Shown here piece by piece: positions 1 to 14,943 of a DNA stretch of 14,943 bases. The stretch's first letter is position 1, and the number at the start of each line of letters is the position of its first letter. The DNA comes from a virus. Position numbers and translations under genes: made by a program. The stretch lies in UHGV virus genome UHGV-1730386; one strand, given 5' to 3'. Below the pieces are notes generated by a model. That model saw only the letters and a list, made by a program, of their open reading frames with translations. It was not told the DNA's origin and did not search any database.

Positions 1-381
1 GATAAACTCTTCAGGGTGTTCGGCAAGATACTGTTTCTTCTCATGGGTAGTTTTCCATGAAACATCTACAAAGACGTTAGGAAGCGTCTCTACAACGAAC
101 TTACCATGACCACGTTTATCGGTCTTTACGTCAGTCACTTTAAACTCTTCAGTGTGCATCTTCTTGTGTTTAATCAAGAAGTATGAACGGTGACCACACT
201 CGTAGAAAGATTCTGGAGATATTGAACGGTACATTGCCCCTTCAAACTTCAGCTTAACCCAATTATCATGAGCAGTGTCAAATTCTTCCCAAGAGTTAAC
301 ACGTATTGTCTGAACAGGTACAACCCTGCAAGCATAACCAAGTCCAACAAGGGGTGAGTTGTCAATAACTTCTCGGGCCAT
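1..381 (-). CDS. ATP-dependent DNA ligase, C-terminal portion (motif IV/V and OB-fold region); C-terminus lies beyond window start; out of frame with the upstream ligase ORF
   Basis: Minus-strand ATG at 381..379 opens a stop-free frame to position 1 (127 codons): MAREVIDNSPLVGLGYACRVVPVQTIRVNSWEEFDTAHDNWVKLKFEGAMYRSISPESFYECGHRSYFLIKHKKMH... It contains EGAMYR (ligase motif IV-like, EGxxxK/R) and FLIKHK (motif V-like, hhKxK). This ORF is absent from the supplied track because it has no stop inside the window. Confidence 0.5.
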   Translation of the reverse strand, partial: MAREVIDNSPLVGLGYACRVVPVQTIRVNSWEEFDTAHDNWVKLKFEGAMYRSISPESFYECGHRSYFLIKHKKMHTEEFKVTDVKTDKRGHGKFVVETLPNVFVDVSWKTTHEKKQYLAEHPEEFI

Positions 382-1004
382 GATTTAGTATTGTCACAGA
401 TATCGTACCAGTAAAATTTAAGAAGGTGACGGTTTGGATTGTCAGCATTCTTAATCATCGACACAATATCTTCCAAGTCCCAACCATGAGCATAAATCTC
501 ACCGTCAAAGTCTTCAACTTGTGGGTGACACCTCAGCATTAGGAGTAAATCTGGGATTAGTTCTGCTGGGACGTTATAAACAGTGTTCTCACGAGAATAA
601 GCTGTGAAGCTCACTGTATCAACATCTCTTGAAATCCTGCAACGAACACCATCAAGTTTAGGTTGAGCGTCAGCAGGGAACTTCAAGTACTTTGCGTGAC
701 TAATCTTTACAGCATCGTGAGCAAGCTGTACACCAACCTTTTCAACACTCTCTGCTTCAGATTTCGTGTAAGTATAACCTTTGCGGTCTACTTGTTTCTT
801 GTACTTTGCAGCAACTTCAAAGAGAGCTTGCTGTTCAGCATTACGCTCATTCTTTTTACCGATGTTCTTTGGCTCTGCTGTATATTCTTCAAACATCATT
901 TTGCCGTTTTCTTTGCCATAAGTGGTAACCACCTTATCACCTACAGCAACACACGACCAAACGTTAAAAGAGCCATCTTTATTTTGTTTGTACAGAATTG
1001 TCAT
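249..1004 (-). CDS. ATP-dependent DNA ligase, N-terminal nucleotidyltransferase domain; last ~45 codons before the stop look like out-of-frame read-through
   Basis: The 251-aa ORF carries covalent nucleotidyltransferase motifs in order: motif I PKLDGVRC (KxDGxR, adenylated lysine), motif III FDGEIY, motif IIIa FYWYDI. After YWYDI the frame becomes hydrophobic low-complexity sequence (LLTTHPLLDLVMLAGLYLF...) while motifs IV and V appear in another frame. The ATG at 1004..1002 overlaps the upstream stop (ATGA). Confidence 0.7.
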   Translation of the reverse strand: MTILYKQNKDGSFNVWSCVAVGDKVVTTYGKENGKMMFEEYTAEPKNIGKKNERNAEQQALFEVAAKYKKQVDRKGYTYTKSEAESVEKVGVQLAHDAVKISHAKYLKFPADAQPKLDGVRCRISRDVDTVSFTAYSRENTVYNVPAELIPDLLLMLRCHPQVEDFDGEIYAHGWDLEDIVSMIKNADNPNRHLLKFYWYDICDNTKSWPEKLLTTHPLLDLVMLAGLYLFRQYVLTLGKNLTLLMIIGLS

Positions 1005-1207
1005 TTTCTCTTCCCACCAATTTCTACATCAATAACTTGCACATCATCATCCACATCAAACTTATGGATAACATTCTCTACAGTGTACATCCAACCATCA
1101 ATCCTTACCCATTCACCTTCTCGTGGCACTATTGGGTTACGTTGGGCAACTGTAGTAGTTGAGTGTATAACGTCATAAAGGTGTATATAATTTACTAAAA
1201 CTTGCAT
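1001..1207 (-). CDS. hypothetical protein (68 aa)
   Basis: ATG-initiated ORF in the leftward gene string. Its stop overlaps the ligase start codon (ATGA at 1001..1004), suggesting translational coupling. No recognisable motif. Confidence 0.5.
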   Translation of the reverse strand: MQVLVNYIHLYDVIHSTTTVAQRNPIVPREGEWVRIDGWMYTVENVIHKFDVDDDVQVIDVEIGGKRK

Positions 1208-1216
1208 AGAAACATC

Positions 1217-1465
1217 TTAAAAGAATAAGTCTGAAGCTTTAGTTACAAGTCGGTTTGGAGAACCATTATAGTGTTCTTCAAAACCTTCTTGACAAGTGTT
1301 GTATAATTTCTTGAACTCTGCCACGTCAACTGGTTTAACATCCTTTTTAGCACATAGGAAAAGATACCAGTCATAACCTAGCCCTCTGCACCAAGCTTCT
1401 GAGATATAAGCTATTGACTTATCGTCATTTTTAAAGATATCTATTGCTTCTTGCTCTTTACCCAT
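1217..1465 (-). CDS. hypothetical protein (82 aa; start moved to internal ATG)
   Basis: The track ORF 1217..1507 begins at a TTG. An in-frame ATG at 1465..1463 is preceded by GGAG and overlaps the upstream stop (ATGGGTAA), so I take it as the start. No recognisable motif. Confidence 0.45.
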   Translation of the reverse strand: MGKEQEAIDIFKNDDKSIAYISEAWCRGLGYDWYLFLCAKKDVKPVDVAEFKKLYNTCQEGFEEHYNGSPNRLVTKASDLFF

Positions 1466-1670
1466 TTTGATTTCTCCAAAACTCAATGTCAATAAGTTCC
1501 TGTGCAATGCTTCTCATGTTACCTTTCAAAAAAACCTTTTCAGAGTTAGGTAGGCTTGCATTATCAATGAGCCTATTCATTCTGTCAAAAAGAGTTTTCT
1601 TCCGATTCTTGATAGTCTCTTTTGAAGCCACTTGCATCATGGCGAGATGGGTTCTTCCACGGTGACTCAT
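1458..1670 (-). CDS. hypothetical small basic protein (70 aa)
   Basis: ATG at 1670..1668 overlaps the stop of the upstream ORF (ATGA). Arg/Lys-rich N-terminal half (MSHRGRTHL...KNRKKTLFDRMNR). Stop overlaps the next start. Confidence 0.5.
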   Translation of the reverse strand: MSHRGRTHLAMMQVASKETIKNRKKTLFDRMNRLIDNASLPNSEKVFLKGNMRSIAQELIDIEFWRNQNG

Positions 1671-1867
1671 AGATGCTCCCCTTTAAGGTAACCTGTCTTA
1701 TCCTTGATAATCTTGCCTCCAGCAATAAAAATATCAACCTTGTAAAGATTTTCATTAGAAATCTTGAGGTGTTTATGGCTACTACAAATAATGATGCACA
1801 TGGACTCAATCTCACTTTGCGAGTATCCAGCACATTGCAGTTGAACTTCAATTTCTGAAATAGTCAT
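1667..1867 (-). CDS. hypothetical protein (66 aa)
   Basis: ATG at 1867..1865 is preceded on the minus strand by AGGAG at about 6-nt spacing. First gene downstream of the DNA polymerase stop. Confidence 0.5.
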   Translation of the reverse strand: MTISEIEVQLQCAGYSQSEIESMCIIICSSHKHLKISNENLYKVDIFIAGGKIIKDKTGYLKGEHL

Positions 1868-1894
1868 ATAAGTCTCCTATACAATATATAGTAT

Positions 1895-1923
1895 ATGGTA
1901 CTCTTCCATGAGCACCTTGTCAA
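1895..1923 (-). promoter_or_regulatory. candidate sigma70-like promoter (TTGACA-N17-TACCAT) just downstream of the DNA polymerase stop, reading leftward
   Basis: On the minus strand: TTGACA (plus 1918..1923), a 17-nt spacer, then TACCAT (plus 1895..1900), followed by an AT-rich leader and the AGGAG RBS of ORF 1667..1867. Sequence match only. Confidence 0.25.
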
Positions 1924-1928
1924 CACTA

Positions 1929-4628
1929 TTAGTGGACTTCAAGCCACGATTTACCAACCTTACCAGTACCCGTTACCAAAGTATCCTTCTTCAGCCCCAA
2001 GTTTTTAGAAGCTTGACCATAATACCAGTCAGTTACTGCCTTAACTTCTGCTGTCATGCTTTCTGGACATTCCCAGCTTGTTTCGTCGTGGTAAGCACAA
2101 AGTAAACGAGCACCGATAGCTGGCTTACGACCATTTAGTTTCATCAAACCTTCATCAATCATACGACGACAAGCAAGGTTGATTGCTTCATTCTGAACTT
2201 GTGCTTCTGAACCCATCAACAGATAGTTCAAGAGTTTGTGTGGAGATTTACACCACAACCACGCCCCAGCAACCTGAACAAATCCACCTTTAGCAATTGC
2301 AGCAGTTTTACCAAAGACCTCTTCAAGAGCTTTCTTAGTTGCTTTAAAGTCAGCTTCTAAGTTATCAATCAGTTTCTTAATCTTCGGCAAACGAACAAAG
2401 TAAGTCTGCTTAGTCAATGCACCTTCTTGAGTAGTTGAAGCTTTGATGGTCTTAGCAAACTTCTCATCACCCGCACCGAACAGCAGTGCATAGATACCGT
2501 TTTTAGCTTTTTTACGACCCTTACTAATCTCGTGAAGAAGATTCTCATCCTGAGTCATACGACAAGTCAAGATATCCTGCTCATCATTCAAGCTGAAGTA
2601 AATACTGTTCAGTGTGTGAGCATCAGTGCCTGAATAGACTACGTACAAGTCGTTTTCAGAGTCATAACGCAGATACTTGTCAACTTCTGGGTTAAGGTAT
2701 TCGTCGAAGTGTTTGCAGTAATAACGACCATCTTCTTGACGAATAAACTCAATTTCTTCCTTACCTTCTGTTACTGCTTTGGTGAACTCTTTATCACCCA
2801 TAAAGTTACACAGTAACACAAGCTGTGCAGAGTTCATATCAACGGATACTACGTTGGTTCCTTCTTCACAAATCCAGACTGCCCTCATTGGTTCCCCGTA
2901 AACAGCAGCCCCAGAAGGTACGTTCACAATACCATACTGTGTCATACGACCAGTTGAAGTACCAAACACCATTGCACCAGCACTCAAGCGACCATCTGGA
3001 CGAATCTGGTTTAACCAACCTTTCTCGTCATCTTTTGAGTTCTCAATAGTTCTACGTCGGTGCATCAAAGTATAGTACTTCGCAATCTTTTGTCCAAGTT
3101 CACCTTCAATGGTGTCATAAGAAGATTCAGTAAGTTTAGGTGAAGTACGAATCAAGCAAGGCTCAAGCAAATCTGTGTACTTCCTAACAGACCAGTTATG
3201 CTCAATGTAATGAACCCCTTCATGCTCAATGTAGTTCAATCCACAACGTTCAACCATCTCATCCCACTTAGGATGTTTACGAATCATCTTCTTATTATCT
3301 TTGAAGCGACATACCTTGATTGGACGGTTATCAGAATCCTTTTTGTAGTTCCAATCATCAGGAATCCAGCCAACAGATTTCAAGTATTCCTTCACCACTG
3401 CAACTTGAGTCATACGTGAAACTTCAAACTCAATTGGTGTATAAGGTGCATCAACAAGACCTGTGTAACGGCTTGACTCCATTTCAAAGTGATTTACTAC
3501 GTGGTTATTGTAGTACTTCACAGTTTTAACTGTCTTAACTGGCTTCCAATCCTTACACTTCTTGCCAGCCTTAGCATTCAACTCATTGCAGATTGCACGA
3601 GCATCTTTCATTGCTACAAAACCTTCCCTGTACTCTTCACCAGTGACAGTGTTAGTTGGAGTGTAGCAATTACGTTTCTCAATGTTGAAAATCTTTGTAG
3701 TTGGTTTCCCATATGGCTTGATAGGGTACGTCTTCAGTTCCCCTTCACGCATCTGCTCACGATACTTTGTCTTTGGATACTTTGTGATACGTTTCAAACC
3801 ATCTACATGACCAAATGTTTCAACATACTCATTCCATGCCTTGGCAAACTCTTCACCAGTTACTTTACCTTTCGTCTTAATAGTCGGAGGTAAGAACGGT
3901 TCAACTTCAGAGGCTAACTCAGAAGTCATCTTATCCAGTTCTTCTACACAGGACTTCATAAGGTCAATGTTAGCTTTCCAACCATTAATAGCTTGTTGAC
4001 TCATCCAGAAAGAAGTCTCTTTAGCTCGCATGTAGGTTTCGTAAGTATCTACACCACACTTCTTAAGCTTAAGGTATTCATTATCCATAGCACGTTTTGC
4101 TTTGGCGTTGATTCGAATATCCTCAACAACACGGTTAAGAATATCAGCGTTCCACACACCCCACTCTTCAATCTCTGGTTTACGAACACCAACACGAGCA
4201 CCCCATGCAGCCAAGCCATGAGCACCTTTGTAACCTTTTGGTGTAGGTCTATCCATCCACTGCACACGAGATTGTATAAGTGAATCCTGAAAGAAGTCAC
4301 TCCAAGGTTTACACTTAGGATTATCAAAGTTCCACAGGTCAGGTGCAATATGGTTGAACACCCACCAGTCATAACCAAGACCATTGTGGATACAAAGGCG
4401 TTTGGCTTTCAATGCAAACTCCACACCTTCACGCAAACCACCTTTGATGTATTTTGTATACTTGTGACCAAGGATAGGCTCATCAGTGAAAACCCACACA
4501 GCAGGTTCATCACTATCATCTTTGTAATCTGCGAATGCCATAACGTGAGCTTTTGTAAACTCAAGCAGCAACCCGTCAGTTTCTGTATCACCAACCAAAT
4601 GTAAGTTTTCAAAATCTACATTGTTCAT
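1929..4628 (-). CDS. DNA polymerase, family A (Pol I / T7 gp5-like) with N-terminal 3'-5' exonuclease domain
   Basis: 899-aa ORF. Exo I motif VGDTETDGL and an HNGLGYD Exo II-like motif at the N-terminus. Polymerase motif A SVDMNSAQLVLL, motif B (O-helix) RKKAKNGIYALLFGAG, motif C YHDET. GAGGGAG RBS about 6 nt upstream of the ATG at 4628..4626. Confidence 0.92.
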   Translation of the reverse strand: MNNVDFENLHLVGDTETDGLLLEFTKAHVMAFADYKDDSDEPAVWVFTDEPILGHKYTKYIKGGLREGVEFALKAKRLCIHNGLGYDWWVFNHIAPDLWNFDNPKCKPWSDFFQDSLIQSRVQWMDRPTPKGYKGAHGLAAWGARVGVRKPEIEEWGVWNADILNRVVEDIRINAKAKRAMDNEYLKLKKCGVDTYETYMRAKETSFWMSQQAINGWKANIDLMKSCVEELDKMTSELASEVEPFLPPTIKTKGKVTGEEFAKAWNEYVETFGHVDGLKRITKYPKTKYREQMREGELKTYPIKPYGKPTTKIFNIEKRNCYTPTNTVTGEEYREGFVAMKDARAICNELNAKAGKKCKDWKPVKTVKTVKYYNNHVVNHFEMESSRYTGLVDAPYTPIEFEVSRMTQVAVVKEYLKSVGWIPDDWNYKKDSDNRPIKVCRFKDNKKMIRKHPKWDEMVERCGLNYIEHEGVHYIEHNWSVRKYTDLLEPCLIRTSPKLTESSYDTIEGELGQKIAKYYTLMHRRRTIENSKDDEKGWLNQIRPDGRLSAGAMVFGTSTGRMTQYGIVNVPSGAAVYGEPMRAVWICEEGTNVVSVDMNSAQLVLLCNFMGDKEFTKAVTEGKEEIEFIRQEDGRYYCKHFDEYLNPEVDKYLRYDSENDLYVVYSGTDAHTLNSIYFSLNDEQDILTCRMTQDENLLHEISKGRKKAKNGIYALLFGAGDEKFAKTIKASTTQEGALTKQTYFVRLPKIKKLIDNLEADFKATKKALEEVFGKTAAIAKGGFVQVAGAWLWCKSPHKLLNYLLMGSEAQVQNEAINLACRRMIDEGLMKLNGRKPAIGARLLCAYHDETSWECPESMTAEVKAVTDWYYGQASKNLGLKKDTLVTGTGKVGKSWLEVH

Positions 4629-4887
4629 TTTAACTCCCTCTCAAATCATACTGCTTAATACCCTACTCCAATTTTTATGAAAAAGCAAGTTGACAAAGCA
4701 CTTGACAAGGTGTTAATCTTTGCGGAGTGGGTTTTATCTTAATAGACTCTCTTTACAGGTTAACTATACAGATTCTTTAAAACCCTTAAAAGATTTTTAA
4801 TAGCCTTTTAAAAGCTTTAAAGTTATACGTATAGAATACGTAAAGATAAGAGATTAAAATCTTTATAGAAACTTAGTAGAGGCAATT
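4629..4887. promoter_or_regulatory. AT-rich divergent intergenic control region between the leftward polymerase block and the rightward block
   Basis: 259 bp of non-coding DNA flanked by divergent start codons at 4628 (-) and 4888 (+). Contains tandem TTGACAA heptamers (4690..4696, 4702..4708), perfect palindromes CTTTTAAAAG (4805..4814), CTTTAAAG (4815..4822) and TATACGTATA (4824..4833), and a possible leftward promoter (GGTTAA 4758..4763 and ATCTTA 4736..4741 on plus, i.e. TTAACC-N16-TAAGAT on minus). Confidence 0.45.
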
Positions 4888-5310
4888 ATGCAGAGGATGT
4901 ACATTCACCCAGATATACAAAACTTCATTGATGCTTTAGAGAAACTTGAAAGGCTTGACTTAGAAGCACAGAAGGAATACGCTTTCCATCATCGACGTAT
5001 GGTTGATGTGCAGCATGAGATAGAGTTGTCAGAAGGGTACGACGATAAGATGAAGTGTTCAGTCTTTGAGCACATGAAAGAAATATCTTCAGAAAGACGT
5101 AAAGCAAAAGATACTATCTTTTTGATAGATACCTTAAAAAATAAGTTGCAAAATGGAACGGATTTAGATAGTCTATCACAACTGCTTCAGGATGCAGAGA
5201 ATACATGGGACAGGAATTACTTCCCAAGGTCTGAAAAAGGACTTGACTTCTCTTCACAAGAAAGCTTAAGATTATCACGACTAACTATTAACAAAATGAG
5301 AGAGAATTAA
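4888..5310 (+). CDS. hypothetical protein (140 aa)
   Basis: ATG-initiated ORF with upstream AGAGG, first gene of the rightward block. No motif recognised; predicted largely helical and charged. Confidence 0.6.
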   Translation: MQRMYIHPDIQNFIDALEKLERLDLEAQKEYAFHHRRMVDVQHEIELSEGYDDKMKCSVFEHMKEISSERRKAKDTIFLIDTLKNKLQNGTDLDSLSQLLQDAENTWDRNYFPRSEKGLDFSSQESLRLSRLTINKMREN

Positions 5311-5311
5311 T

Positions 5312-6115
5312 ATGACTACTGTAAATGAAATGCTGTCCTCAAAAGGTATTGATAGTAACTTTATGCTCAATACAATTGAAAGTCTTGCTATTGTAATGCG
5401 TAGCAACACATTCAGTTCCAAGGTAATGCCTGAATCATATCAGGTTAATGGAGATATCTCTGATGAGTCATCGTTTCGCTCACAAGTTAAACTCCTTCTA
5501 AGTGACCGTAAACTCGCTCTGGCATCTGTAGCGGTTGGTGTAGATGCCTTTGCTGGTTATATCTTTGACAACATGCAGACTGGTGACTTTAAAGTTCTTT
5601 CTGAGGAAGAGAAAGAAGGAATCCTTAACTTCTCTGAAGATGCTACCTTTGAACTGATTATCAACTCAATTGCAAGTGTTATGGCTGTTCTTGAGAAGCG
5701 TGTTCAAGATAAACTTCCACGCTATGAACAACTTGATTGGGGGTTCGTAGATATCTTTGAGCGAGTGCTGGAGATGGTGACCCTTACTAGTGAGCAACTT
5801 AAAGAGGTTGTTGCGCGTGAAGCTGAACATGGACTTGATGAGATTCAGGTTAAACTTACCGCATTGGTCCCATCAATCATCACTGTAATGGGTATCCACG
5901 CTCTGTTTGAAGTCGCTCAACTGATTGATGCACCTATAGAGTTTGTTGAGCAGATTGCTGGTGATGTAAGTGGTGAAGCACTACGCGAAGTCATTATGCA
6001 GACTGGTGCAGCAGTACTCCAAGAGAAAATTGCTATCCACTTCGGTGATGAGTTTGTTGAGACTCTTCAGGCTATCTCTGAAAAAGAAAAACTGGACTCT
6101 AACCAGATTCACTAA
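5312..6115 (+). CDS. hypothetical acidic protein (267 aa)
   Basis: ATG one nucleotide after the upstream stop. Strongly acidic composition (many Asp/Glu, few Lys/Arg) and no catalytic motif recognised. Followed by a hairpin and T-tract. Confidence 0.65.
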   Translation: MTTVNEMLSSKGIDSNFMLNTIESLAIVMRSNTFSSKVMPESYQVNGDISDESSFRSQVKLLLSDRKLALASVAVGVDAFAGYIFDNMQTGDFKVLSEEEKEGILNFSEDATFELIINSIASVMAVLEKRVQDKLPRYEQLDWGFVDIFERVLEMVTLTSEQLKEVVAREAEHGLDEIQVKLTALVPSIITVMGIHALFEVAQLIDAPIEFVEQIAGDVSGEALREVIMQTGAAVLQEKIAIHFGDEFVETLQAISEKEKLDSNQIH

Positions 6116-6127
6116 TACAATTGTTTT

Positions 6128-6157
6128 CCCCAAGCCTCCTTAATTGGGGGCTTTTTA
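6128..6157 (+). terminator. candidate rho-independent terminator
   Basis: CCCCAA (6128..6133) pairs with TTGGGG (6144..6149) around a 10-nt loop, then GC and TTTTT (6152..6156). Lies immediately after the stop of ORF 5312..6115. Confidence 0.4.
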
Positions 6158-6173
6158 TTATGAGAGGTTTATT

Positions 6174-6911
6174 ATGAAGAGTATTATTGCATTCACTGGT
6201 AAGGCACGTTCTGGTAAAGATACTTCCTGCACCATCGTTAAGAACCACTTGATTGAAGAAGGCTACGCTGTTAAAGTCTTTGCGTTCGCAGATAATCTTA
6301 AAGCAACTGCTGGAGATATCTTTGACTTAGATTGGCAAGACTTGTATGGCGACACCAAAGAGAAACCTCAGAAATTTGACTTAACATTCTCAAATGTGCA
6401 TAGTAACGTTAAATATTCTTTCTTCAGACACTTGAAAGATAAAGGTATACATAATGATGAGAAACTTTGTGGTGAAATCACAGACAGACTTATCAAAGAA
6501 CTGAAGAAGGTTGCTAAACCGACTCTCTTGACAAGGATGGGTTTCAGGAATGAATACATCTTCTCTTCACGACAAATCCAACAAGTTTGGGGTAGTGAGG
6601 TTATTCGTAAAATCCTTGGGGAGCGTTTCTGGATTATTGACCTTGCAGAAAGAATAGAAAAGTTTTATGGTGAAACAGAAAGAAAAGGCCACATTCCAGT
6701 AATCCTAATTTGTGATTTGAGGTTTGATATTGAAGCTGAATTTATCAAGAGCTATAATAGTCAAATCATCGAAGTGACCAGAAATGGTATTGAGCAGGTT
6801 GCTTCACACCATTCTGAAAAAGGTATCTCTACACGCTTCGAAAGAGATATTATTCAGAACAACGGAACAATAGATGAACTTGCAGATAAACTGAAAGTCA
6901 TCATAAAATAG
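6174..6911 (+). CDS. deoxynucleoside monophosphate kinase (T4 gp1-like dNMP kinase)
   Basis: N-terminal P-loop IIAFTGKARSGKDT, matching the GxxRSGKDT signature of phage dNMP kinases. The track start at 6144 is a TTG inside the terminator; I use the ATG at 6174, preceded by GAGAGG. Confidence 0.7.
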   Translation: MKSIIAFTGKARSGKDTSCTIVKNHLIEEGYAVKVFAFADNLKATAGDIFDLDWQDLYGDTKEKPQKFDLTFSNVHSNVKYSFFRHLKDKGIHNDEKLCGEITDRLIKELKKVAKPTLLTRMGFRNEYIFSSRQIQQVWGSEVIRKILGERFWIIDLAERIEKFYGETERKGHIPVILICDLRFDIEAEFIKSYNSQIIEVTRNGIEQVASHHSEKGISTRFERDIIQNNGTIDELADKLKVIIK

Positions 6912-6924
6912 AGAGATATTGAAG

Positions 6925-7116
6925 ATGAGAGATAATAACTTGAAAGTTGTTGACCACCGTAGTGTAGAACTCTCATCTCTTTCTAAAGAAGTAATGATGG
7001 AGCGACTTGAAAGGGTCGCTTCTCGTCGGAAAGAGATTGCAGAAGAAATTCATGAATTAGATAAGATTGAGAATGGTCTTAAAGCAGAACTGCGTCGTAG
7101 AGGTGTAAATGGCTAA
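6925..7116 (+). CDS. hypothetical small charged/coiled-coil protein (63 aa)
   Basis: The track ORF starts at TTG 6919; I use the ATG at 6925. Sequence is Glu/Lys/Arg-rich and heptad-like. Its stop overlaps the primase-helicase start (ATGGCTAA, 7109..7116). Confidence 0.45.
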   Translation: MRDNNLKVVDHRSVELSSLSKEVMMERLERVASRRKEIAEEIHELDKIENGLKAELRRRGVNG

Positions 7117-9097
7117 ACCAAGAAAATTGAAAGAAGCTGGTCAATTTGTAGGTCATTGTGCATGTCCTAAATGTGATTCTTCAGATGCAGGTTCAATTTA
7201 TCATCACGACGACGACTCATATTCAATGACTTGTTTTAGTTGTGGTAAAGGTTTTCCAGAGTGGGATTTTGATAAAGGTCAAATTGTGAGCACAATGTCC
7301 ACAGGTTCTGATAGTAAAAATCGTAAGTTTCGTGGTATGGATTTAGATGATGTTAAAGAAAACCTCGAAGCAATGGATTTAAAAGACAGGAAGATTCCTG
7401 CAAAGGTTTTAGAACGTCTTGGTATTAAAGTTGACGTAGATGAGAATGGAGATATTGACGCTCATTTCTATCCAACTTATAAGAAGGATGAAGATGGGAA
7501 ATTGAAGCATGTTGGTTATCGAGTTCGTCACAAATACCCTGATGACCACCCTAAAGAACAGCTTCGTGGTAAGTTAAAAGACTTCTCAGGCGGTGTAGGT
7601 GATATTAAAGGTGAACTGGCGATGTTCGGTTCATGGATTGCACCTGAAGGTGGTAATCGCTTATTCATCTGGGAAGGTGAGATGGAATGTGCTACAGCAG
7701 TCTATATGACTTCTTTAGCAATTAAGGATAAGTCACGTAGAAAGAACTACTGTCACGTATCTGTCCCATCTGGTGCAAACGTTAAGTCTATCAAGGAGAA
7801 CTATCAGTACATCACATCCTTTGATGAGATTTACCTTTGCTTCGACAACGATGAAGCAGGTGCTAAGGTAACTAAGGAAGCTGCTGGTATCCTTCCTATT
7901 GAAAAGGTTCGACTGTTCCAGTATCCTGAAGGTGTTAAAGACCTTAGCGAGTGGTGGACTAAATTCTTTAAAGACAAAGATACAGTCTTAGAAGGGTTTA
8001 AGCAGAGAATCTATAATGCACCTCGTTACTGCCCTGCTGGTATTAAGAACTTTGCAGACGGTTTCGAAGCAATGAAGAATCGTGGTCAGATTCCTTTGAT
8101 TCCTTTTCCAGAATCTTTCGGGGATTTGAACAAGTTAACTTATGGTGGTTATGGGTTAGGCGAAATCACTACACTGGCTGCACCGTCATCTGTTGGTAAA
8201 TCTGCCTATACTCGTGAAATGATTTATACAGCATGGAAAGATACTGAGTACAACATTGGTGTAATTCCTGTAGAAGATACTTACGAAGAACTTATGGAAA
8301 TGCTCTGTGCAATCCATCTAAGTAAGCAGATTTCAGAGATTCCTTACGATGAGCGAGATTGGGATGAGCTAAAAGGAGCACATGCGGATTTGTCAAAAGG
8401 TCGTCGTATTCACATCGTAGACCATCAAGGGGCAATTGACCAAGACAACTTGCTAGAATTTGTTGACTATCTTGTTAACAGTCTTGATTGTAAGATTATC
8501 ATCCTTGACCCAATTACATTGGCTTTGTCACGCTCTGATACTGACGAAGAAGAAGTCCTGTCTGAACTGTTGCGTCGTTGCAAGCGTTATCAGTATGCTC
8601 AGGTAAACGTATGTCACGTTCGTAAGAGCGCAGGTGGTCAGAAAGCTAACTCTGAAGGTGGAGATATCTCTGAAGAAGATATCAAGGGTTCTGGTGCATA
8701 CTTCCAGATTTCTATGAACAACATTTTGTTAATGCGCAACAAGGTTGACCCAGACCCTGTTAAGAAAAACTTGACAAAAATCAAGTTAACTAAATGTCGT
8801 CGTCATGGTAAATCCACTGGTATTGCTGGTCACACTTGGTATAATCCAGAAACAGGCCGTCTTATCAAGGCTGCTGGTTGTGGTGTTGATATTGATGGTG
8901 CAGCAGAGAATATCCGTCAGCAGTATGGTATTGGTGATGCTGAAGACCATTACGATGATACCATGCCACACTATGAAGATGAAGCATTTGACCGTGATAC
9001 TGGAGAGTTGTATACTCAAGAGCAACGTCAGAGTTCTACAATTCCTCCTGCAATCAATGAGGATGGTGATGATGACTGCCCGTTTGAAACTGACTGA
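7109..9097 (+). CDS. bifunctional DNA primase-helicase (T7 gp4-like: zinc ribbon, TOPRIM primase, DnaB-family helicase)
   Basis: 662 aa. N-terminal zinc ribbon CACPKCDS...CFSCGKG. TOPRIM acidic motifs WEGEMECA and CFDNDEAG. Helicase Walker A AAPSSVGKSAY and Walker B IIILDPIT. Acidic C-terminus ending DDDCPFETD. Confidence 0.9.
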   Translation: MAKPRKLKEAGQFVGHCACPKCDSSDAGSIYHHDDDSYSMTCFSCGKGFPEWDFDKGQIVSTMSTGSDSKNRKFRGMDLDDVKENLEAMDLKDRKIPAKVLERLGIKVDVDENGDIDAHFYPTYKKDEDGKLKHVGYRVRHKYPDDHPKEQLRGKLKDFSGGVGDIKGELAMFGSWIAPEGGNRLFIWEGEMECATAVYMTSLAIKDKSRRKNYCHVSVPSGANVKSIKENYQYITSFDEIYLCFDNDEAGAKVTKEAAGILPIEKVRLFQYPEGVKDLSEWWTKFFKDKDTVLEGFKQRIYNAPRYCPAGIKNFADGFEAMKNRGQIPLIPFPESFGDLNKLTYGGYGLGEITTLAAPSSVGKSAYTREMIYTAWKDTEYNIGVIPVEDTYEELMEMLCAIHLSKQISEIPYDERDWDELKGAHADLSKGRRIHIVDHQGAIDQDNLLEFVDYLVNSLDCKIIILDPITLALSRSDTDEEEVLSELLRRCKRYQYAQVNVCHVRKSAGGQKANSEGGDISEEDIKGSGAYFQISMNNILLMRNKVDPDPVKKNLTKIKLTKCRRHGKSTGIAGHTWYNPETGRLIKAAGCGVDIDGAAENIRQQYGIGDAEDHYDDTMPHYEDEAFDRDTGELYTQEQRQSSTIPPAINEDGDDDCPFETD

Positions 9098-9350
9098 TAG
9101 TTATCTGAAGGAGGGCATCACGCCCTTCTATTCAGAAAATAGCACTAAAAAATTTGCAAAAGATTGCTTGACTAAGATTGAAGAGTTCGCTAAAGTACTA
9201 ATCAACAAGGGGCATGATGTTACTTATGAACATGAAAGCCGTGAAGATAAAGACTTGTTTGCACTGTCAATTGACAAAGCTGAAACAATTTATCTTTTTA
9301 CCTTGACTTTAAAAACATTTGAATATGAAATATATCGGAGCACAAAATGA
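9072..9350 (+). CDS. hypothetical protein (about 92 aa; start uncertain, overlaps the primase-helicase 3' end)
   Basis: The frame is open from inside the helicase gene to TGA 9348..9350. The only ATGs are at 9057/9063/9069/9072, before the helicase stop; GAGGA at 9060..9064 sits upstream of 9072. Its stop overlaps the next ATG (ATGA at 9347..9350). The track ORF 8805..9350 is an over-extension. Confidence 0.3.
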   Translation: MTARLKLTDSYLKEGITPFYSENSTKKFAKDCLTKIEEFAKVLINKGHDVTYEHESREDKDLFALSIDKAETIYLFTLTLKTFEYEIYRSTK

Positions 9351-9484
9351 AACACTCTAAAGCATTTGAAGCAGTATTTGGAGATTCCCTGAAAGCAACT
9401 GCTGGTAAGTCTGCTGAACATTACAAAACGAAGCGAGTTCGCACTGGTAAGACTGCTCGTAAAGCTGCCAAGAAAGCTGCTTAA
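9347..9484 (+). CDS. hypothetical small Lys/Ala-rich basic protein (45 aa)
   Basis: MKHSKAFEAVFGDSLKATAGKSAEHYKTKRVRTGKTARKAAKKAA. GGAG at 9337..9340 lies 6 nt upstream of the ATG, which overlaps the upstream stop. Below the length cut-off of the supplied track. Confidence 0.4.
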   Translation: MKHSKAFEAVFGDSLKATAGKSAEHYKTKRVRTGKTARKAAKKAA

Positions 9485-9489
9485 AATGT

Positions 9490-9518
9490 TTGACATGGGG
9501 GTATGAAGCATGTAAGAT
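9490..9518 (+). promoter_or_regulatory. candidate sigma70-like promoter upstream of the SSB-like gene (TTGACA-N17-TAAGAT)
   Basis: Perfect -35 TTGACA at 9490..9495, a 17-nt spacer, then TAAGAT at 9513..9518 (4/6 to TATAAT). Downstream RBS AGAAAGAGG precedes ATG 9572. Sequence match only. Confidence 0.4.
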
Positions 9519-9571
9519 TGTACTCCCAATAAGATTTGAATTGATAGTTAATTTGAGAAAGAGGTATTAAA

Positions 9572-10426
9572 ATGTCTAAAGTTGTTAAAATGAAATCTCC
9601 GGTAGAAAAATACAACGGTAAAGAACTTGAAACTTATCGTTACCTGCTGAAAGATGTTTGGTTCTACTACTTGAATACTATTCCACGTCCTCAGAAGGGC
9701 AAGTCTGTAGACAAACATTTCCCAGGCAAAGACTGTAATTACAGCGTTTCAATTCTGGCAAAAGACGGTAACAAGCTCTTTAAAGAGTTCACCAAGTCTA
9801 AAAAAAATCCAGATGGTTGGGATAAGGTCACTACAGAGACTGTTGATGCAGATGACTTTGAAGAGAAGTTTGGTTGTGAGCCTCCATTCGAAGCTGACAC
9901 TTATTACATCCTGAAGGTTAGCCGTTCAGCAGCTTACAAAGATGGTGCTGTATGGTCAGCAAAACAGAGTTTCCCTGTGATGCTGGTTGAAGAACTGAAC
10001 GGTAAACGTGTTGCGGTTAAGCAACCTATGAAGAAAATTAAGGCAGCAAAATCTGACAAGCATGACGATGACAAGACTTACGATGTTGTCTGTCCAGATA
10101 TTGCAGTCGGTAATGGTTCTTTTGGTAGTGTGATTCTTTCGACTCACTTCTACACCTTCGAAGGTAACGTTCTAACTAAGCCAATTCAGGAGCAGTTTAT
10201 CATTGATACTCTGGTTCCATACACTGGTGGTACTGGTGGTGCAACCGAGACTGAACTTGATGAAGACGAACTGGCACTGCTTGGTCTCGCAGGTGTTGAA
10301 GACAACGGTGAAATCTCTGAAGAAGATGCAAAAGATTCTGATGATGATAAAGGTGGTGACGACGATGACGACGACCTGCCAACACCGGATGATGACGACG
10401 AAGACTTCGAGACTGACGACGAATAA
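9572..10426 (+). CDS. putative single-stranded DNA-binding protein with acidic C-terminal tail (T7 gp2.5-like architecture)
   Basis: 284 aa with a long poly-Asp/Glu tail ending DDDDDDLPTPDDDDEDFETDDE. Sits between primase-helicase and exonuclease, as in T7-like replication modules. Has the best promoter-like sequence in the window upstream and a terminator downstream. Call rests on architecture and position, not on sequence identity. Confidence 0.5.
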   Translation: MSKVVKMKSPVEKYNGKELETYRYLLKDVWFYYLNTIPRPQKGKSVDKHFPGKDCNYSVSILAKDGNKLFKEFTKSKKNPDGWDKVTTETVDADDFEEKFGCEPPFEADTYYILKVSRSAAYKDGAVWSAKQSFPVMLVEELNGKRVAVKQPMKKIKAAKSDKHDDDKTYDVVCPDIAVGNGSFGSVILSTHFYTFEGNVLTKPIQEQFIIDTLVPYTGGTGGATETELDEDELALLGLAGVEDNGEISEEDAKDSDDDKGGDDDDDDLPTPDDDDEDFETDDE

Positions 10427-10446
10427 TAGTCAGTAACTAATACAAA

Positions 10447-10474
10447 GCCCTGTACAGAACGTATAGGGCTTTTT
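10447..10474 (+). terminator. candidate rho-independent terminator after the SSB-like gene
   Basis: Stem GCCCTGTAC (10447..10455) pairs with GTATAGGGC (10461..10469), 9 bp including one G-U, around a 5-nt loop AGAAC, followed by TTTTT (10470..10474). Confidence 0.5.
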
Positions 10475-10488
10475 CGTATGGAGGTACA

Positions 10489-11529
10489 ATGAATCAGTAT
10501 ACACTTACAAAGCTCCCAGAAAGCGTTACACACGTCTTCATTGACGCAGACAGCATTGCTTACAAGGGTGCTTGTGTAGTTGAAAAAGCAAAGTACAAGT
10601 ATGTGAATAAACTTACCGCTGAAGAGTCTGATGACTTTGATAGTGCTAAGTTAGCTTCACAATGGTTAGCTGACCAGAGAGTTCTTACAGAGGAACTTGG
10701 ACTTGACTTTGATGAAGATGAGTGGGAAAGACAGACTTGGAAGGAAGCCAAGAGCGAAAAAGAAGCTATTATGGCAACTCAGCAGGTTCTTCAAGAATGG
10801 CTTAAAGTTGTCGGTAAAGAGCGTCAATGGATGGGTTACCTGACTGAGAAGGGTGTTCACAAACACAAAGACATTAAAGGTCTTGAACATCAATATCAAG
10901 GTAACAGGAAAGATGCGGTGACACCTACGCACCTAGTTGCTTGTCGTGAGTATCTTCTGTCACGACCTGAGTTTAAGCTTCTCAAAGGTGGCTTTGAAGC
11001 TGACTCAATCGTTATTGCAAAAGCTGAAAAGATGGGTAAAAAAGCTGCTCTTATGAGTATTGATAAAGACCTTCGTCAAGCTGAAGGTACATATTGTATT
11101 GATATGACTTATGAGAAAGCACCACTTATCTTTATTGCTGATAATAACATTGGAGAGATTTGGGATTGCCCTATCAAATCCAAACCAAAAGCTAAGAAGA
11201 CAGTCGGAGTAGGCTTCAAATTCCTCTGCTATCAAGCTGTAGCAGGTGATAATGCAGATAACTACTTTGGCCTTAAGGGTGCTGGTAAAGTTGCTGTAAT
11301 GAACGCTCTGGAAGGTAAAACAACCTATAGAGAATGTTTAGATGCTGTTTATGAGTTGTATGCAAAGAAAGACTCTTACACCTATGTGTCGTGGGACGGT
11401 CAAACAATTACCAGAACACCTTTAGAGTTAATGCACCAGCACTTCTGGATTGCATACCAAGAGCGAAATCCAAAGGATGATTTCACGTTTGAAAAATATG
11501 GATGGGAGCCTACTATGAATGAAGATTAA
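10489..11529 (+). CDS. 5'-3' exonuclease / flap endonuclease (T7 gp6 / RNase H-like, PIN-fold family)
   Basis: 346 aa. N-terminal acidic motif VFIDADSIAYKG, central IDKDLRQAEG, and C-terminal AGDNADNYFGLKGAGKVAV, arranged like the metal-binding Asp clusters and helix-hairpin-helix region of phage 5'-3' exonucleases. GGAGG RBS at 10480..10484. Confidence 0.7.
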   Translation: MNQYTLTKLPESVTHVFIDADSIAYKGACVVEKAKYKYVNKLTAEESDDFDSAKLASQWLADQRVLTEELGLDFDEDEWERQTWKEAKSEKEAIMATQQVLQEWLKVVGKERQWMGYLTEKGVHKHKDIKGLEHQYQGNRKDAVTPTHLVACREYLLSRPEFKLLKGGFEADSIVIAKAEKMGKKAALMSIDKDLRQAEGTYCIDMTYEKAPLIFIADNNIGEIWDCPIKSKPKAKKTVGVGFKFLCYQAVAGDNADNYFGLKGAGKVAVMNALEGKTTYRECLDAVYELYAKKDSYTYVSWDGQTITRTPLELMHQHFWIAYQERNPKDDFTFEKYGWEPTMNED

Positions 11530-12028
11530 AGGTTTCGGTAATTGTCCTGTTTATGGTCATTGGGTATCTTTATGCGGGGAAGTTGACCCCGCTAAACTGT
11601 TCGGGTTTGTCTACCTAGTCTATTGTAAGAAAACTGGACAGTATTACATTGGTAAAAAACAGTTCAATAGTATCACTAAGAAGAAGGTTGCTGGAAAGAC
11701 CAGACGTAAGGTTGTCACCAAAGAGAGTGACTGGATGGTTTACCAGACTTCTTCTGAGTACATTAAGAAAGATATTGAAGCTTTTGGTATGAAAGAGTTT
11801 GACTTCTACATTGTGCAAACCTATTATACACGAGGTGGATTAGTCTACGGAGAAGCAAATCTCCAACATAAGTTCGATGTTATGACAAAAAGGATTGACT
11901 CGAAACTCAGACTCTTCTACAATGCCAATATTGCAGCTATCAAGTTCCTTACAAAAGAAACTTATGAAGAAGCTGAGAAACGTATTAACAAAATCATGAA
12001 ACTTAACGAGAGAGAAAATCATGTTTAA
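11519..12028 (+). CDS. putative GIY-YIG family nuclease (single-domain, 169 aa)
   Basis: FGFVYLVYCKKTGQYYIGKKQF matches the GIY-(10-11 aa)-YIG pattern with VYL replacing GIY. It is followed by a basic stretch with Arg (KTRRK), then FDFYIVQ, a conserved-position Glu (GEANL) and YNAN (the GYN-like Asn). Start overlaps the exonuclease stop by 11 nt. Confidence 0.5.
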   Translation: MKIKGFGNCPVYGHWVSLCGEVDPAKLFGFVYLVYCKKTGQYYIGKKQFNSITKKKVAGKTRRKVVTKESDWMVYQTSSEYIKKDIEAFGMKEFDFYIVQTYYTRGGLVYGEANLQHKFDVMTKRIDSKLRLFYNANIAAIKFLTKETYEEAEKRINKIMKLNERENHV

Positions 12029-12230
12029 AGCTATCAAGCACGACCATCAAGCTAAAATCGAAGCTGGCTTGGATAATCTGAAGACGGTTATTGCAAAGGC
12101 TAAAGAAGCCACTGAAACAGAGATGGATGCTCTGGAGTCTCAAATTCAGCACCTGATTAACAAACGTGTTGAACTGAAAGCCCGTCTGGATTATATTTTG
12201 TCTAAACAGGAATTATTTCAGGAGGTTTAA
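12021..12230 (+). CDS. hypothetical small coiled-coil protein (69 aa)
   Basis: Start overlaps the upstream stop (ATGTTTAA) and stop overlaps the next start (TAATG at 12228..12232). Heptad-like charged sequence (KIEAGLDNLKTVIAKAKEATETEMDALESQIQHLINKRVELKARLDYIL). Confidence 0.5.
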   Translation: MFKAIKHDHQAKIEAGLDNLKTVIAKAKEATETEMDALESQIQHLINKRVELKARLDYILSKQELFQEV

Positions 12231-12985
12231 TGTTTAATTCCAGAGAATCCGTAGTAAATTGGAATCTTCGTTGTGGTAATACTCCAAAGGTTCTATACAG
12301 CCCTGAATATTGGGAATCACTGAAGAGTCAATCTCTTTGTATGTTGGAAGAAGCTAAAGAGTTAGTGGCAGCAGTTGAAGCAAAAGACCCTGTTGAAACT
12401 CTTGATGCTCAGGCTGATTTGCAGTATGTTTTAGATGGTTTGGTATTCTTGTCACAGCATGACCACGATGGTGCTATGGAAGCTGTTTGCCAGAATAACA
12501 ACCTGAAATATACAGATAGCTATCAAGAAGCTGTACAACGTATGTTTGACATTGAGAAACGTACTGGTGATGAATGCTATCTACGTCCGTCAATGGTTGA
12601 AGGTAAAGAGTGGTTTGCAGTAGTACGTAAATCAGATGGTAAGATTATGAAGCAGTCTAATCTCCCAAAAGTTCAGCTTGCAGAGTTTATCGCAGAGGTT
12701 GAATCTAAAGAGTTATTCGTGGTAGTATCTGACACATGTGTTATCTGTCAGGGCTTACTAGGAAGTCTGAGAAGCCTTGGTGTAGATAACTTCACAGAAA
12801 TTACTCCAATCAGTTCTAAAGCTGATAGAGATTTCTGTAGAGATAATGACTTGTGGGTTGCAGATATCGTTTACTACGATGGTGAGAAGTTCCATACGAC
12901 CTCATACCCGAAGTTGAACTATGATGCAAATAACCTGAAGAATTGGTTAAAAGGGGTAGGTTATAATGGATTCACAGAACACTAA
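12230..12985 (+). CDS. hypothetical two-domain protein: N-terminal MazG-like all-alpha NTP pyrophosphatase-like region plus C-terminal glutaredoxin/thioredoxin-fold-like region (CVIC)
   Basis: 251 aa. N-terminal LEEAKELVAAVEAKDPVETLDAQADLQYVLDGLVFL resembles the EExxE...D acidic helices of MazG/HisE-like proteins. C-terminal KELFVVVSDTCVICQGLLGSLRSLGVDNFTEI...DLWVADIVYYDGEKF resembles a glutaredoxin/NrdH beta-alpha-beta unit with a CxxC. CAGGAGG RBS at 12217..12223. Domain calls are pattern-level only. Confidence 0.4.
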   Translation: MFNSRESVVNWNLRCGNTPKVLYSPEYWESLKSQSLCMLEEAKELVAAVEAKDPVETLDAQADLQYVLDGLVFLSQHDHDGAMEAVCQNNNLKYTDSYQEAVQRMFDIEKRTGDECYLRPSMVEGKEWFAVVRKSDGKIMKQSNLPKVQLAEFIAEVESKELFVVVSDTCVICQGLLGSLRSLGVDNFTEITPISSKADRDFCRDNDLWVADIVYYDGEKFHTTSYPKLNYDANNLKNWLKGVGYNGFTEH

Positions 12986-13289
12986 TAAAGCAGAGGTGGC
13001 TCAGGAGAGCCATTTCTCAAACTATAATATTTCTATGACAGTATTCATGAATGATTCACTGTTAGCGAAATATGGTGAAACTCCAGATACACTTCTGGAT
13101 AACGAACAAGTTCTTAAAGCTGTCCTGTACAAATATGGCTTTAACATTGATAAAAAGTTCTCTTATGAGATTTGTCAGCACAGAAATACTTATGGTCAAG
13201 TAGTTGTAGCTCCTCTGTTTATTGGTGTAGAACGCACAGATGAGCAGTGGACTTATTTAAAACGAAATCTGGATAGATACCATGTCTAA
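12966..13289 (+). CDS. hypothetical protein (107 aa)
   Basis: ATG at 12966 is preceded by GGGGTAGG and overlaps the 3' end of the upstream gene by 20 nt. No motif recognised. Confidence 0.5.
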   Translation: MDSQNTNKAEVAQESHFSNYNISMTVFMNDSLLAKYGETPDTLLDNEQVLKAVLYKYGFNIDKKFSYEICQHRNTYGQVVVAPLFIGVERTDEQWTYLKRNLDRYHV

Positions 13290-13617
13290 AGCTAAAAAGT
13301 TGACTATTGAAGATGTTAAATCTGGTGTAGAACTAGGTGTTGACAAATATGGAGAACCACTCCACTTCGGTGACTTTGTAATGTATACAGAAGATTGCAA
13401 AGGTCGTAGTGATATTAAGTTTGGTCGTGTTGTTTCTAAAGTTCGTGGTAACTTTTCAATTGCAAGGATTGATGACAATATCCATGAAAAACTTGAAAGA
13501 ATCTTCAGTGACCAATATGGTAGCTGGTATTGCAATGCAATGTCTAAAGGCTCAATTACCAAAGTATCTCAAAGATTCTACGAACTCTGGGATAATCAAA
13601 AGATTTTTAGCATTTAA
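13282..13617 (+). CDS. hypothetical protein (111 aa)
   Basis: ATG 13282 overlaps the upstream stop (ATGTCTAA). Followed directly by a strong hairpin terminator. No motif recognised. Confidence 0.55.
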   Translation: MSKAKKLTIEDVKSGVELGVDKYGEPLHFGDFVMYTEDCKGRSDIKFGRVVSKVRGNFSIARIDDNIHEKLERIFSDQYGSWYCNAMSKGSITKVSQRFYELWDNQKIFSI

Positions 13618-13624
13618 TCTCTAA

Positions 13625-13647
13625 GGGGTCTCTTCGGAGACCCTTTT
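13625..13647 (+). terminator. rho-independent terminator (GGGTCTC-TTCG-GAGACCC followed by TTTT)
   Basis: Perfect 7-bp GC-rich stem (13626..13632 with 13637..13643) closing a TTCG tetraloop, then TTTT at 13644..13647. Lies 8 nt after the stop of ORF 13282..13617 and 20 nt before the nrdA start. Confidence 0.65.
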
Positions 13648-13666
13648 CACCTGTAGGATTCAAATA

Positions 13667-14943
13667 ATGATTAAAACTATTCGCAAATCTAACGGAAACG
13701 TTGTAACATTCGAGCCTGAACGTTTGAATAAGTGGGCTTCATGGGCTGACAAACGAGGTATTATCTGGTCAGAAGTTACAATGGAAGCTATGAAACGTGT
13801 CTATGAAGGTTGCACCACTAAAGAGATGCACCAAGCTATGATTGACGTTTGTATTGATAAGCAAAGTCAAGAATACTCTGACATGGCTGGACGACTTCTG
13901 TTAGGTATTATCTATAAAGAAGCTTTTGGTGGATTCACTAAAGTTCCAAATCTTTACGTATTTGTTAAGAATATGGAAGAGTCAGGTTTATGGGAGAAGA
14001 TGGATTACTCACGAGAAGAGTTAGAATACCTTCAAGGCTTCATCGTTCACTCAAAAGATATCTCCTATGGTTATGCAGTACTGAAACAGTTCCGTGACAA
14101 GTACGGAATCCGTGACATTAAAACTGGACAACTCTTTGAGTCACCTCAGTTTATGTTTATGGGAATGGCTATGAAAGCCTTTGAGAGACAGCCTAAGCAC
14201 CGTCGCTTAGAGGATGTTATCAAGCTGTATACTTATCTGTCAGACTTGAAAATTAATGCTCCAACTCCTTACCTGAATGGTTTGAGAGCTACTAAGTCAG
14301 GTTATGCTTCATGCTGCTTGATTAAAGCTAACGATACCGCTGAATCACTTGGTATTGCTACAAAGGTAGCTTATGATATGACTACAAAGCAAGCTGGTAT
14401 TGGTATGCTTATGGAGACCAGAACGATTGGTGACGGGATTCGTCAGAATACCATTGAGCATATGGGGAAACTCCCTTATTATAAGCTTGTACGTGCTGCT
14501 GTAGAGGCTAATAAACAAAAGAGTAGAGGTGGTTCAGCGAACAACTTCTACACTGCTCTTGACCCTCAGATTGAAGATTTACTTCGTCTGAAGCACCCTA
14601 CAACGGTTACTTCAAAGCGTATTAATGAGATGGATTACTCATTTGGAACAAACGATTACTTCTGGCAATGTGTGCAGTATGATACAGATTGGCTACTATT
14701 CTCTTACAAGGACGCTCCAAAATTGTATGATATGTTCTACACAGCAAGTGCAGATGAGTTTGCAATGGCTGTTGGACATGCGGTTCACACTGGTGTTAAA
14801 CATAAGCGAGTAAAAGCTCGTGAGATTGCTAAGTTGTTTATCCAGCAACGTTATGCAACTGGTCGTGTTTATCCGTTCTTTACGAACAACGCAAACACAC
14901 ATACGCCGTTCAAAGAACCTTTGAAAATGTCTAACCTGTGCAT
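13667..14943 (+). CDS. nrdA: ribonucleoside-diphosphate reductase large subunit (class I, NrdA), N-terminal 425 aa; 3' end beyond window
   Basis: ATG 13667 with AGGA upstream; stop-free to the window end, so absent from the track. N-terminal ATP-cone-like segment (IRKSNGNVVTFEPERL). Segments recalled as closely matching E. coli NrdA: FESPQFMFMGMAM, INAPTPYLNGLRATKSGYASCCLI, RINEMDYSFGTN, YATGRVYPFFTNNANTHTPF, and the terminal SNLC. Confidence 0.9.
   Translation, partial: MIKTIRKSNGNVVTFEPERLNKWASWADKRGIIWSEVTMEAMKRVYEGCTTKEMHQAMIDVCIDKQSQEYSDMAGRLLLGIIYKEAFGGFTKVPNLYVFVKNMEESGLWEKMDYSREELEYLQGFIVHSKDISYGYAVLKQFRDKYGIRDIKTGQLFESPQFMFMGMAMKAFERQPKHRRLEDVIKLYTYLSDLKINAPTPYLNGLRATKSGYASCCLIKANDTAESLGIATKVAYDMTTKQAGIGMLMETRTIGDGIRQNTIEHMGKLPYYKLVRAAVEANKQKSRGGSANNFYTALDPQIEDLLRLKHPTTVTSKRINEMDYSFGTNDYFWQCVQYDTDWLLFSYKDAPKLYDMFYTASADEFAMAVGHAVHTGVKHKRVKAREIAKLFIQQRYATGRVYPFFTNNANTHTPFKEPLKMSNLC

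Follow-up and report, generated by a model that had tools for sequence, protein, structure and literature searches.

A DNA ligase gene divided between two reading frames by an apparent 7-nt deletion in a metagenome-assembled Felix O1-like phage

The DNA ligases of Felix O1-like phages (Ounavirinae), among them Felix O1 ORF207, Sf13 gp110, ESh22 URY12832.1 and SUSP1 agp040, belong to PHROG 114, combine the Pfam domains PF01068 and PF14743 and are each encoded by one open reading frame (ORF) of 1101-1104 nt. The second of these domains aligns with residues 303-363 of the intact Sf13 ligase and scores 25.6 bits there, below the cut-off of 28 bits. Motifs IV and V of DNA ligases form part of the nucleotide-binding pocket, and both the OB domain and motif VI are needed for self-adenylation. 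The closest solved structures are the ligases of African swine fever virus (ASFV), Chlorella virus PBCV-1 and T4, at an identity of only about 19-20% in comparisons that were made with an intact relative (P0001, 89% identical and not the product of the gene described here). The predicted model of P0001 (pLDDT 93.9) shows the three-domain ligase fold in a structure search, a result that concerns the relative and not the product of the gene described here, and its best PDB matches are to the ASFV ligase (E=1.7e-25, TM 0.82, covering all three domains), with the ligases of PBCV-1 (2Q2T) and T4 (6DT1) also among the best, and these matches confirm the identity of the intact family. The ASFV enzyme (PDB 6IMJ/6IMK) matches the intact family by sequence as well, over residues 25-350 (E=1.2e-7).

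Here, we analysed a window of 14,943 nt from UHGV virus genome UHGV-1730386, which carries such a ligase gene at its start. Along its full length, the window shares 97.4% identity with Shigella phage ESh22 (Mooglevirus, Ounavirinae), compared with 83-87% for about 260 other records of Felix O1-like phages from Escherichia, Salmonella, Shigella and Citrobacter. It belongs to a metagenome-assembled Felix O1-like phage (Ounavirinae, Mooglevirus-like). Its ligase gene shares with those of the Felix O1-like phages a common position, downstream of the DNA polymerase gene and a small overlapping ORF, as well as the order of the motifs, and is 87-91% identical to them at the nucleotide level over all 1004 nt present. 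Unlike them, it is laid out in two frames, has 7 nt fewer and has its last ~29 codons hidden, and, in contrast to the ligases of solved structure, it cannot encode the complete fold in one chain. The N-terminal domain of the Felix O1-type ligase (residues 1 to ~90, corresponding to window positions ~1004-740) aligns with the N-terminal DNA-binding domain of the ASFV enzyme, as judged from the sequence match to 6IMJ/6IMK and the whole-model fold match of P0001. The features of the locus are collected in Table 1; no tRNA genes were found in the window.

Table 1. Positions in the window of the two parts of the ligase gene, their motifs and the sites discussed in the text
Feature	Position	Strand	Remark
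Ligase gene, 5' part	372..1004	-	frame of ATG 1004, codons 1-211
First-frame ORF	1004..249	-	251 aa, from the ORF list
Motif I, KLDGVR	659..642	-	in ORF 1004..249
Motif III, FDGEIY	509..492	-	in ORF 1004..249
Motif IIIa, FYWYDI	416..399	-	in ORF 1004..249
First ATG of the -1 frame	379..381	-	two codons past TAA 387..385
Deletion junction	372..373	-	sole gap in the alignment with intact ligase genes
Ligase gene, 3' part	1..372	-	-1 frame relative to the first
Out-of-frame tail	249..371	-	40 codons, KLLTTHPLL...IIGLS, then TGA 251..249; from the translations
CCCC run	351..354	-	only spot in the overlap for P-site tRNA re-pairing after a -1 slip
Motif IV, EGAMYR	243..226	-	-1 frame
Motif V, FLIKHK	180..163	-	-1 frame

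The 5' part of the gene starts at an ATG that overlaps the stop of the small upstream ORF (ATGA), aligns without gaps to the ligase genes of Sf13, IME338 and SUSP2, and encodes a DNA-binding-like domain at the N-terminus, followed by the first half of the nucleotidyltransferase domain. Motif I, whose lysine is adenylated (consensus KxDGxR), is present as KLDGVR, in which K116, G119 and R121 are invariant across 51 homologues, and motifs III and IIIa share its frame, as in an ATP-dependent DNA ligase. The native residues of the predicted 251-aa product end with ...KSWPE (residue 211) and are followed by 40 hydrophobic, out-of-frame residues (KLLTTHPLLDLVMLAGLYLFRQYVLTLGKNLTLLMIIGLS) up to the TGA. 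This tail shows no similarity to anything, and its bases, when read in the -1 frame, align to the ligase of the relatives. The 3' part of the gene covers the equivalent of residues ~214-337 in the relatives of 366 aa and reads IMAREVIDNSPLVGLGYACRVVPVQTIRVNSWEEF...EGAMYR...FLIKHK...AEHPEEFI in the -1 frame, thereby including most of the OB domain (up to ...AEHPEEFI). Motifs IV (EGxxxR/K) and V (LxKxK) do not lie on the polypeptide that carries motif I, which leaves that polypeptide without a complete nucleotidyltransferase domain, and motif VI, which in the relatives (...LQFPVGLVIRDYE) is located within the last ~29 codons, falls here under a 102-N gap of the scaffold. Upstream, the -1 frame is closed by TAA 420..418, TGA 396..394 and TAA 387..385; from the codon after the last of these it is open to window base 1, and over 384..252 both frames are open. 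Its first ATG is a chance product of TCA TGG read one base off.

The initial annotation of this DNA had placed motifs I, III and IIIa in the first frame, and motif IV-like and motif V-like sequences together with OB-like sequence in a different frame that runs to the window start, and it had noted that the first frame turns hydrophobic between them and that the second carries TGA and TAA stops. We recovered each of these features, with all coordinates verified on the minus strand. The second frame had also been taken to open at ATG 381..379; this ATG does exist, and the actual change of frame takes place at 373/372, within the interval 249..420 to which the event had been assigned.

Both pieces are recognizable as ligase. 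On the profile of PHROG 114 (ATP-dependent DNA ligase), the 251-aa product aligns at positions 109-336 (E=1.5e-51) and the 127-aa product of the second frame at positions 365-473 (E=2.4e-25), and because the two pieces match consecutive parts of one profile, they represent real ligase sequence and not a chance resemblance. Similarly, positions 3-82 of the PF01068 profile are matched by the first piece and positions 154-204 by the second, with separate scores of 15.3 and 17.4 bits, both below the 26.2-bit cut-off, and once the 7 nt are restored a match over profile positions 3-204 reaches 32 bits and exceeds it. The proposal that a ligase gene is split across two frames is therefore confirmed by the matches of both profiles to both pieces, and the opposite case, in which the 251-aa product would be a complete ligase and the frame 1..381 would be devoid of ligase similarity, is contradicted by the PHROG 114 match of the 127-aa product.

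Sequence alignment traces the split to one 7-nt deletion in a known, well-conserved phage gene. Against the ligase genes of Sf13, IME338 and SUSP2 (1101-1104 nt each), window positions 1004..1 align with exactly one gap; the 1004-nt alignment is reported with four intact ligase genes and this single gap, which is likewise the only one in BLAST alignments to the closest among 18 related loci. The 7 missing nucleotides are GCGNCGT, from the codons Glu-Arg-Arg between motif IIIa and motif IV, and the relatives carry GCGACGT, GCGTCGT or GCGCCGT at the junction. Where the relatives read TGGCCTGAGCGACGTGAAAT, the window reads TGGCCCGA, a gap of seven positions and GAAGTT, and the placement of the junction (373/372 or 372/371) is ambiguous by one G. 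Removal of 7 nt shifts the downstream codons to the -1 frame, which is what we observed. A frameshift-aware comparison of the kind recommended in the initial annotation, in which the ESh22 ligase was placed on the window by tblastn, located residues 1-224 in frame -2 (92% identity) and residues 213-337 in frame -1 (95% identity), and restoring the 7 nt yields one open frame that spans all 337 codons present in the window.

The deletion removes Arg213, the first arginine of Glu-Arg-Arg; conservation at this position is at least 90% in the 51-homologue alignment, which reaches down to about 28% identity. In the P0001 model the break maps to the beginning of the helix formed by residues 210-218, right behind the strand of motif IIIa and midway through the nucleotidyltransferase domain. 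No homopolymer or repeat is present at the site, which has 1 nt of flanking microhomology. A mosaic junction was considered as the cause and rejected, as the identity to ESh22 and Sf13 shifts at about 1007-1210 and across the N gap, and not at the deletion. We are highly confident that the locus carries a simple lesion of this kind, be it a mutation or an artefact.

The split layout is not conserved among related phages. The 7 nt are present, and the ORF is undivided, in Felix O1 ORF207 (1101 nt), Sf13 gp110, IME338, SUSP2 and ESh22 as well as in twelve IMG/VR genomes, and every relative that was aligned base by base has the 7 nt and one ligase ORF of 366-367 aa. When the Sf13 protein was used as a tblastn query, 428 of the 465 phage records contained the ligase as a single stretch that matched 80% or more of the query; among records sampled across the full ranking, only one, an UNVERIFIED draft, had a fragmented ligase. 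Ligase homologues in a collection of 5.8 billion proteins are 353-429 aa long, and the few shorter ones are partial or come from phage RP3. A degenerate pattern of the deleted junction had 0 matches in IMG/VR, two allele-specific strings (29-32 nt) were likewise without a match there, and no allele-specific match was found in complete E. coli genomes or plasmids. Matches of the junction pattern in two metagenome contigs and two genome contigs were discarded as chance, since BLAST assigned them to unrelated DNA. The closest ligase genes are about 90-91% identical, and the ancestral intact allele was not recovered in the collections scanned. The exact 251-aa product occurs on one contig only (ERZ28622977; scaffold NIEL14-1_SAMEA1966253_METAG-scaffold_655, 23.5 kb, from an ENA metagenome), the locus of which is 100% identical to the window. 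A deletion that is private to one metagenome scaffold points either to a genuine mutation that disabled the gene recently or to a mistake in the assembly or the reads.

Several database entries bear a resemblance to the present case. The GenBank records of fjerdesal, momo and GEC_vB_BS, in which 'DNA ligase (x2)' is listed, were inspected as candidate split ligases and set aside, as the true ligase is intact in them. The second 'ligase' of these records is a small ORF of ~72 aa upstream of the ligase (fjerdesal_96, momo_126, GECvBBS_gp104c), and the label 'DNA ligase' on homologues of this small upstream ORF looks like a propagated mis-annotation. Escherichia phage RP3, another metagenome-assembled genome, has a truncated ligase of 246 aa (P0006, UKH47816.1) that ends with ...VVPVKSRRGNYWVEFF; this end lies ~30 codons downstream of the position of the lesion in the window and resembles degraded sequence. 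The RP3 truncation indicates that disrupted ligase genes recur in metagenome-assembled genomes of Felix O1-like phages. A literature search for a frameshifted Felix O1 ligase returned nothing relevant.

Two overlapping frames with the downstream one in -1 are also seen in the programmed -1 frameshifts of the phage tail chaperone G/GT, of T7 gene 10A/10B and of dnaX, and a -1 ribosomal frameshift, programmed or tolerated, for example by a P-site slip at the CCCC run, could in principle produce a near-full-length ligase here. The geometry would allow it, given that the second frame is -1 relative to the first, that both are open in the overlap and that tRNA-Pro can re-pair perfectly with the CCCC run after a -1 slip. 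However, the described systems rely on a conserved slippery heptamer and a layout that is kept in relatives, and the window has neither: an X XXY YYZ heptamer in the zero frame is absent between 384 and 249, and the two-frame layout was seen in no relative examined. Moreover, the 131 nt at 400..270 fold at -25.6 kcal/mol compared to a shuffle mean of -28.3 (z = +0.72), which argues against a stable stimulatory RNA structure around or after the junction. The joined product would still be without the nearly invariant Arg213, and according to the P0001 model a slip at the CCCC run would exchange 8 native residues for 6 foreign ones at the start of the 210-218 helix. We therefore consider a frameshift of this kind very improbable.

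A ligase made of two polypeptides, namely residues 1-251 and a second chain starting at ATG 381, which would assemble into an active enzyme, fares no better. The in-frame ATG two codons past the stop that opens the second frame, and the presence of all motifs visible in the window on the two pieces together, are compatible with it. Yet the 25 nt before ATG 381 (ACGATATCTGTGACAATACTAAATC) contain no Shine-Dalgarno sequence, translational coupling is impossible because the first frame stops 130 nt beyond this ATG, and the gene prediction for the source contig leaves the second piece without a gene. In addition, the break does not coincide with a domain boundary: it interrupts the nucleotidyltransferase domain between motifs IIIa and IV, where a helix begins in the model of P0001. 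The split is conserved in no relative examined. An enzyme assembled from two chains is accordingly a most unlikely outcome. That the broken gene still gives ligase activity without Arg213, by slippage at the CCCC run or by assembly of the fragments, we regard as barely conceivable; if it did, this would be a Felix O1-like phage with a recoded or two-piece ATP-dependent ligase. We conclude that the split is neither a programmed nor a conserved feature and involves no special coding mechanism. Of the four causes that had initially been put forward without a preference, a pseudogene and an indel error remain, and two polypeptides and a programmed frameshift are disfavoured.

The phage itself may have an intact ligase, the 7 nt having been lost through an erroneous or chimeric read or a wrong path in a mixed-strain assembly graph at low coverage. 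The source is a metagenome scaffold with a run of 102 N (scaffold 4005-4106) in the same gene, which begins directly beyond window base 1 within the 3' end of the ligase, conceals the final ~29 codons with motif VI among them, and lies about 370 nt from the deletion. The scaffold is also mosaic, and its ligase is a roughly 90%-identity island relative to any known phage. On the polymerase side, the flank of the ligase matches both ESh22 and one IMG/VR genome at 97-99.6% identity, the window beyond the ligase region (1210-14943) is 97.6-98.7% identical to ESh22, and the scaffold past the N gap is SUSP1/SUSP2-like (92-94%) and not ESh22-like. The ligase gene thus lies between mosaic breakpoints, where co-occurring strains would confuse an assembler, and both the N gap and the identity island would be expected from low coverage or from mixed strains. 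The restriction of the allele to a single contig and the full preservation of the downstream part of the gene, with a dN/dS of about 0.05 and no stop, are likewise in line with an error. We see such an error as a substantial possibility, albeit not a probable one, since the ligase contains the sole frame disruption among 21 genes common with ESh22 in 14.9 kb, the site lacks the homopolymer or repeat and has only the 1 nt of microhomology described above, and De Bruijn graph assemblers should require reads that span the junction.

Other differences from ESh22 accompany this mosaicism. Window positions 1007-1209, with a 68-aa ORF at 1001..1207 on the minus strand, replace about 550 nt of different small ESh22 genes. 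ESh22 has an insertion of ~500 nt encoding a protein with an HNH endonuclease motif between the exonuclease and the next gene, and this insertion is missing at window positions 11505-11514, which makes the site free of the homing endonuclease of ESh22. Outside the window, G/T-rich repeats that recur every 10 nt (GGTNNGGT-like; scaffold 4196-4390) form two clusters in the long non-coding stretch after the ligase, flanked by repeated TAAGAG(T/G)(C/G)TTTT-like boxes.

We believe, by a modest degree of preference, that the deletion is genuine and that the assembled sequence records an evolutionarily very recent null allele of the ligase gene. The 20 other genes common with ESh22 each give a single-frame match, 19 of them at 83-100% identity and one at 48%, so that the assembly does not appear to be indel-prone in general, and the loss of 7 nt at a non-homopolymer site would be atypical of a base-calling error. 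The out-of-frame 3' part of the gene comprises 124 codons without a stop or a further indel, and we found no pseudogene decay downstream of the lesion in these codons: dN/dS relative to the relatives (0.04-0.10) equals that seen when intact genes are compared, and private amino-acid changes number three in the out-of-frame part and three upstream. The undecayed state of the downstream part implies that the lesion is either very recent or not real, and is predicted by both readings.

The 7-nt loss shifts the downstream ligase codons to the -1 frame, and the gene as written would give a 251-aa product of 211 native and 40 nonsense residues, from which motifs IV, V and VI are missing along with the OB domain; the remaining ligase coding sequence is left untranslated. 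Given the roles of these motifs and of the OB domain, this product should be inactive. If the null allele is genuine, the sampled phage population would carry it, and this loss of ligase may be tolerated if the NAD-dependent LigA of the host seals the nicks and Okazaki fragments of the phage DNA.

There is precedent for such tolerance. The ligase of T7 gene 1.3 is dispensable on ligase-proficient (lig+) hosts. In phage SUSP1, a Felix O1-like phage, a transcriptome-wide CRISPRi-ART screen did not place the ligase agp040 among the Fit or Semi-fit genes, and four of the six replication genes were scored as fitness genes in the same screen (PMC11879866). The SUSP1 ligase is 88% identical to that of the window at the DNA level, and its negative result was obtained by knock-down in a laboratory host and does not prove that the ligase is dispensable. 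Both are phage ATP-dependent ligases whose loss or knock-down is compatible with growth on a ligase-proficient enterobacterial host, and together they make a natural ligase null allele plausible. In contrast to these laboratory mutants or knock-downs, the allele described here, if real, would be a null allele from a natural sample.

Our analysis has little importance beyond annotation and reveals no new mechanism. The appropriate label for the gene is a frameshifted or disrupted DNA ligase (a pseudogene or possible assembly error), rather than a 251-aa ligase or a hypothetical protein. A real deletion, however, would provide a natural example of a Felix O1-like phage without a ligase of its own that lives on the LigA of its host, which would be in keeping with classical T7 genetics and the knock-down screen of SUSP1 and would add a small data point on which replication genes can be lost.
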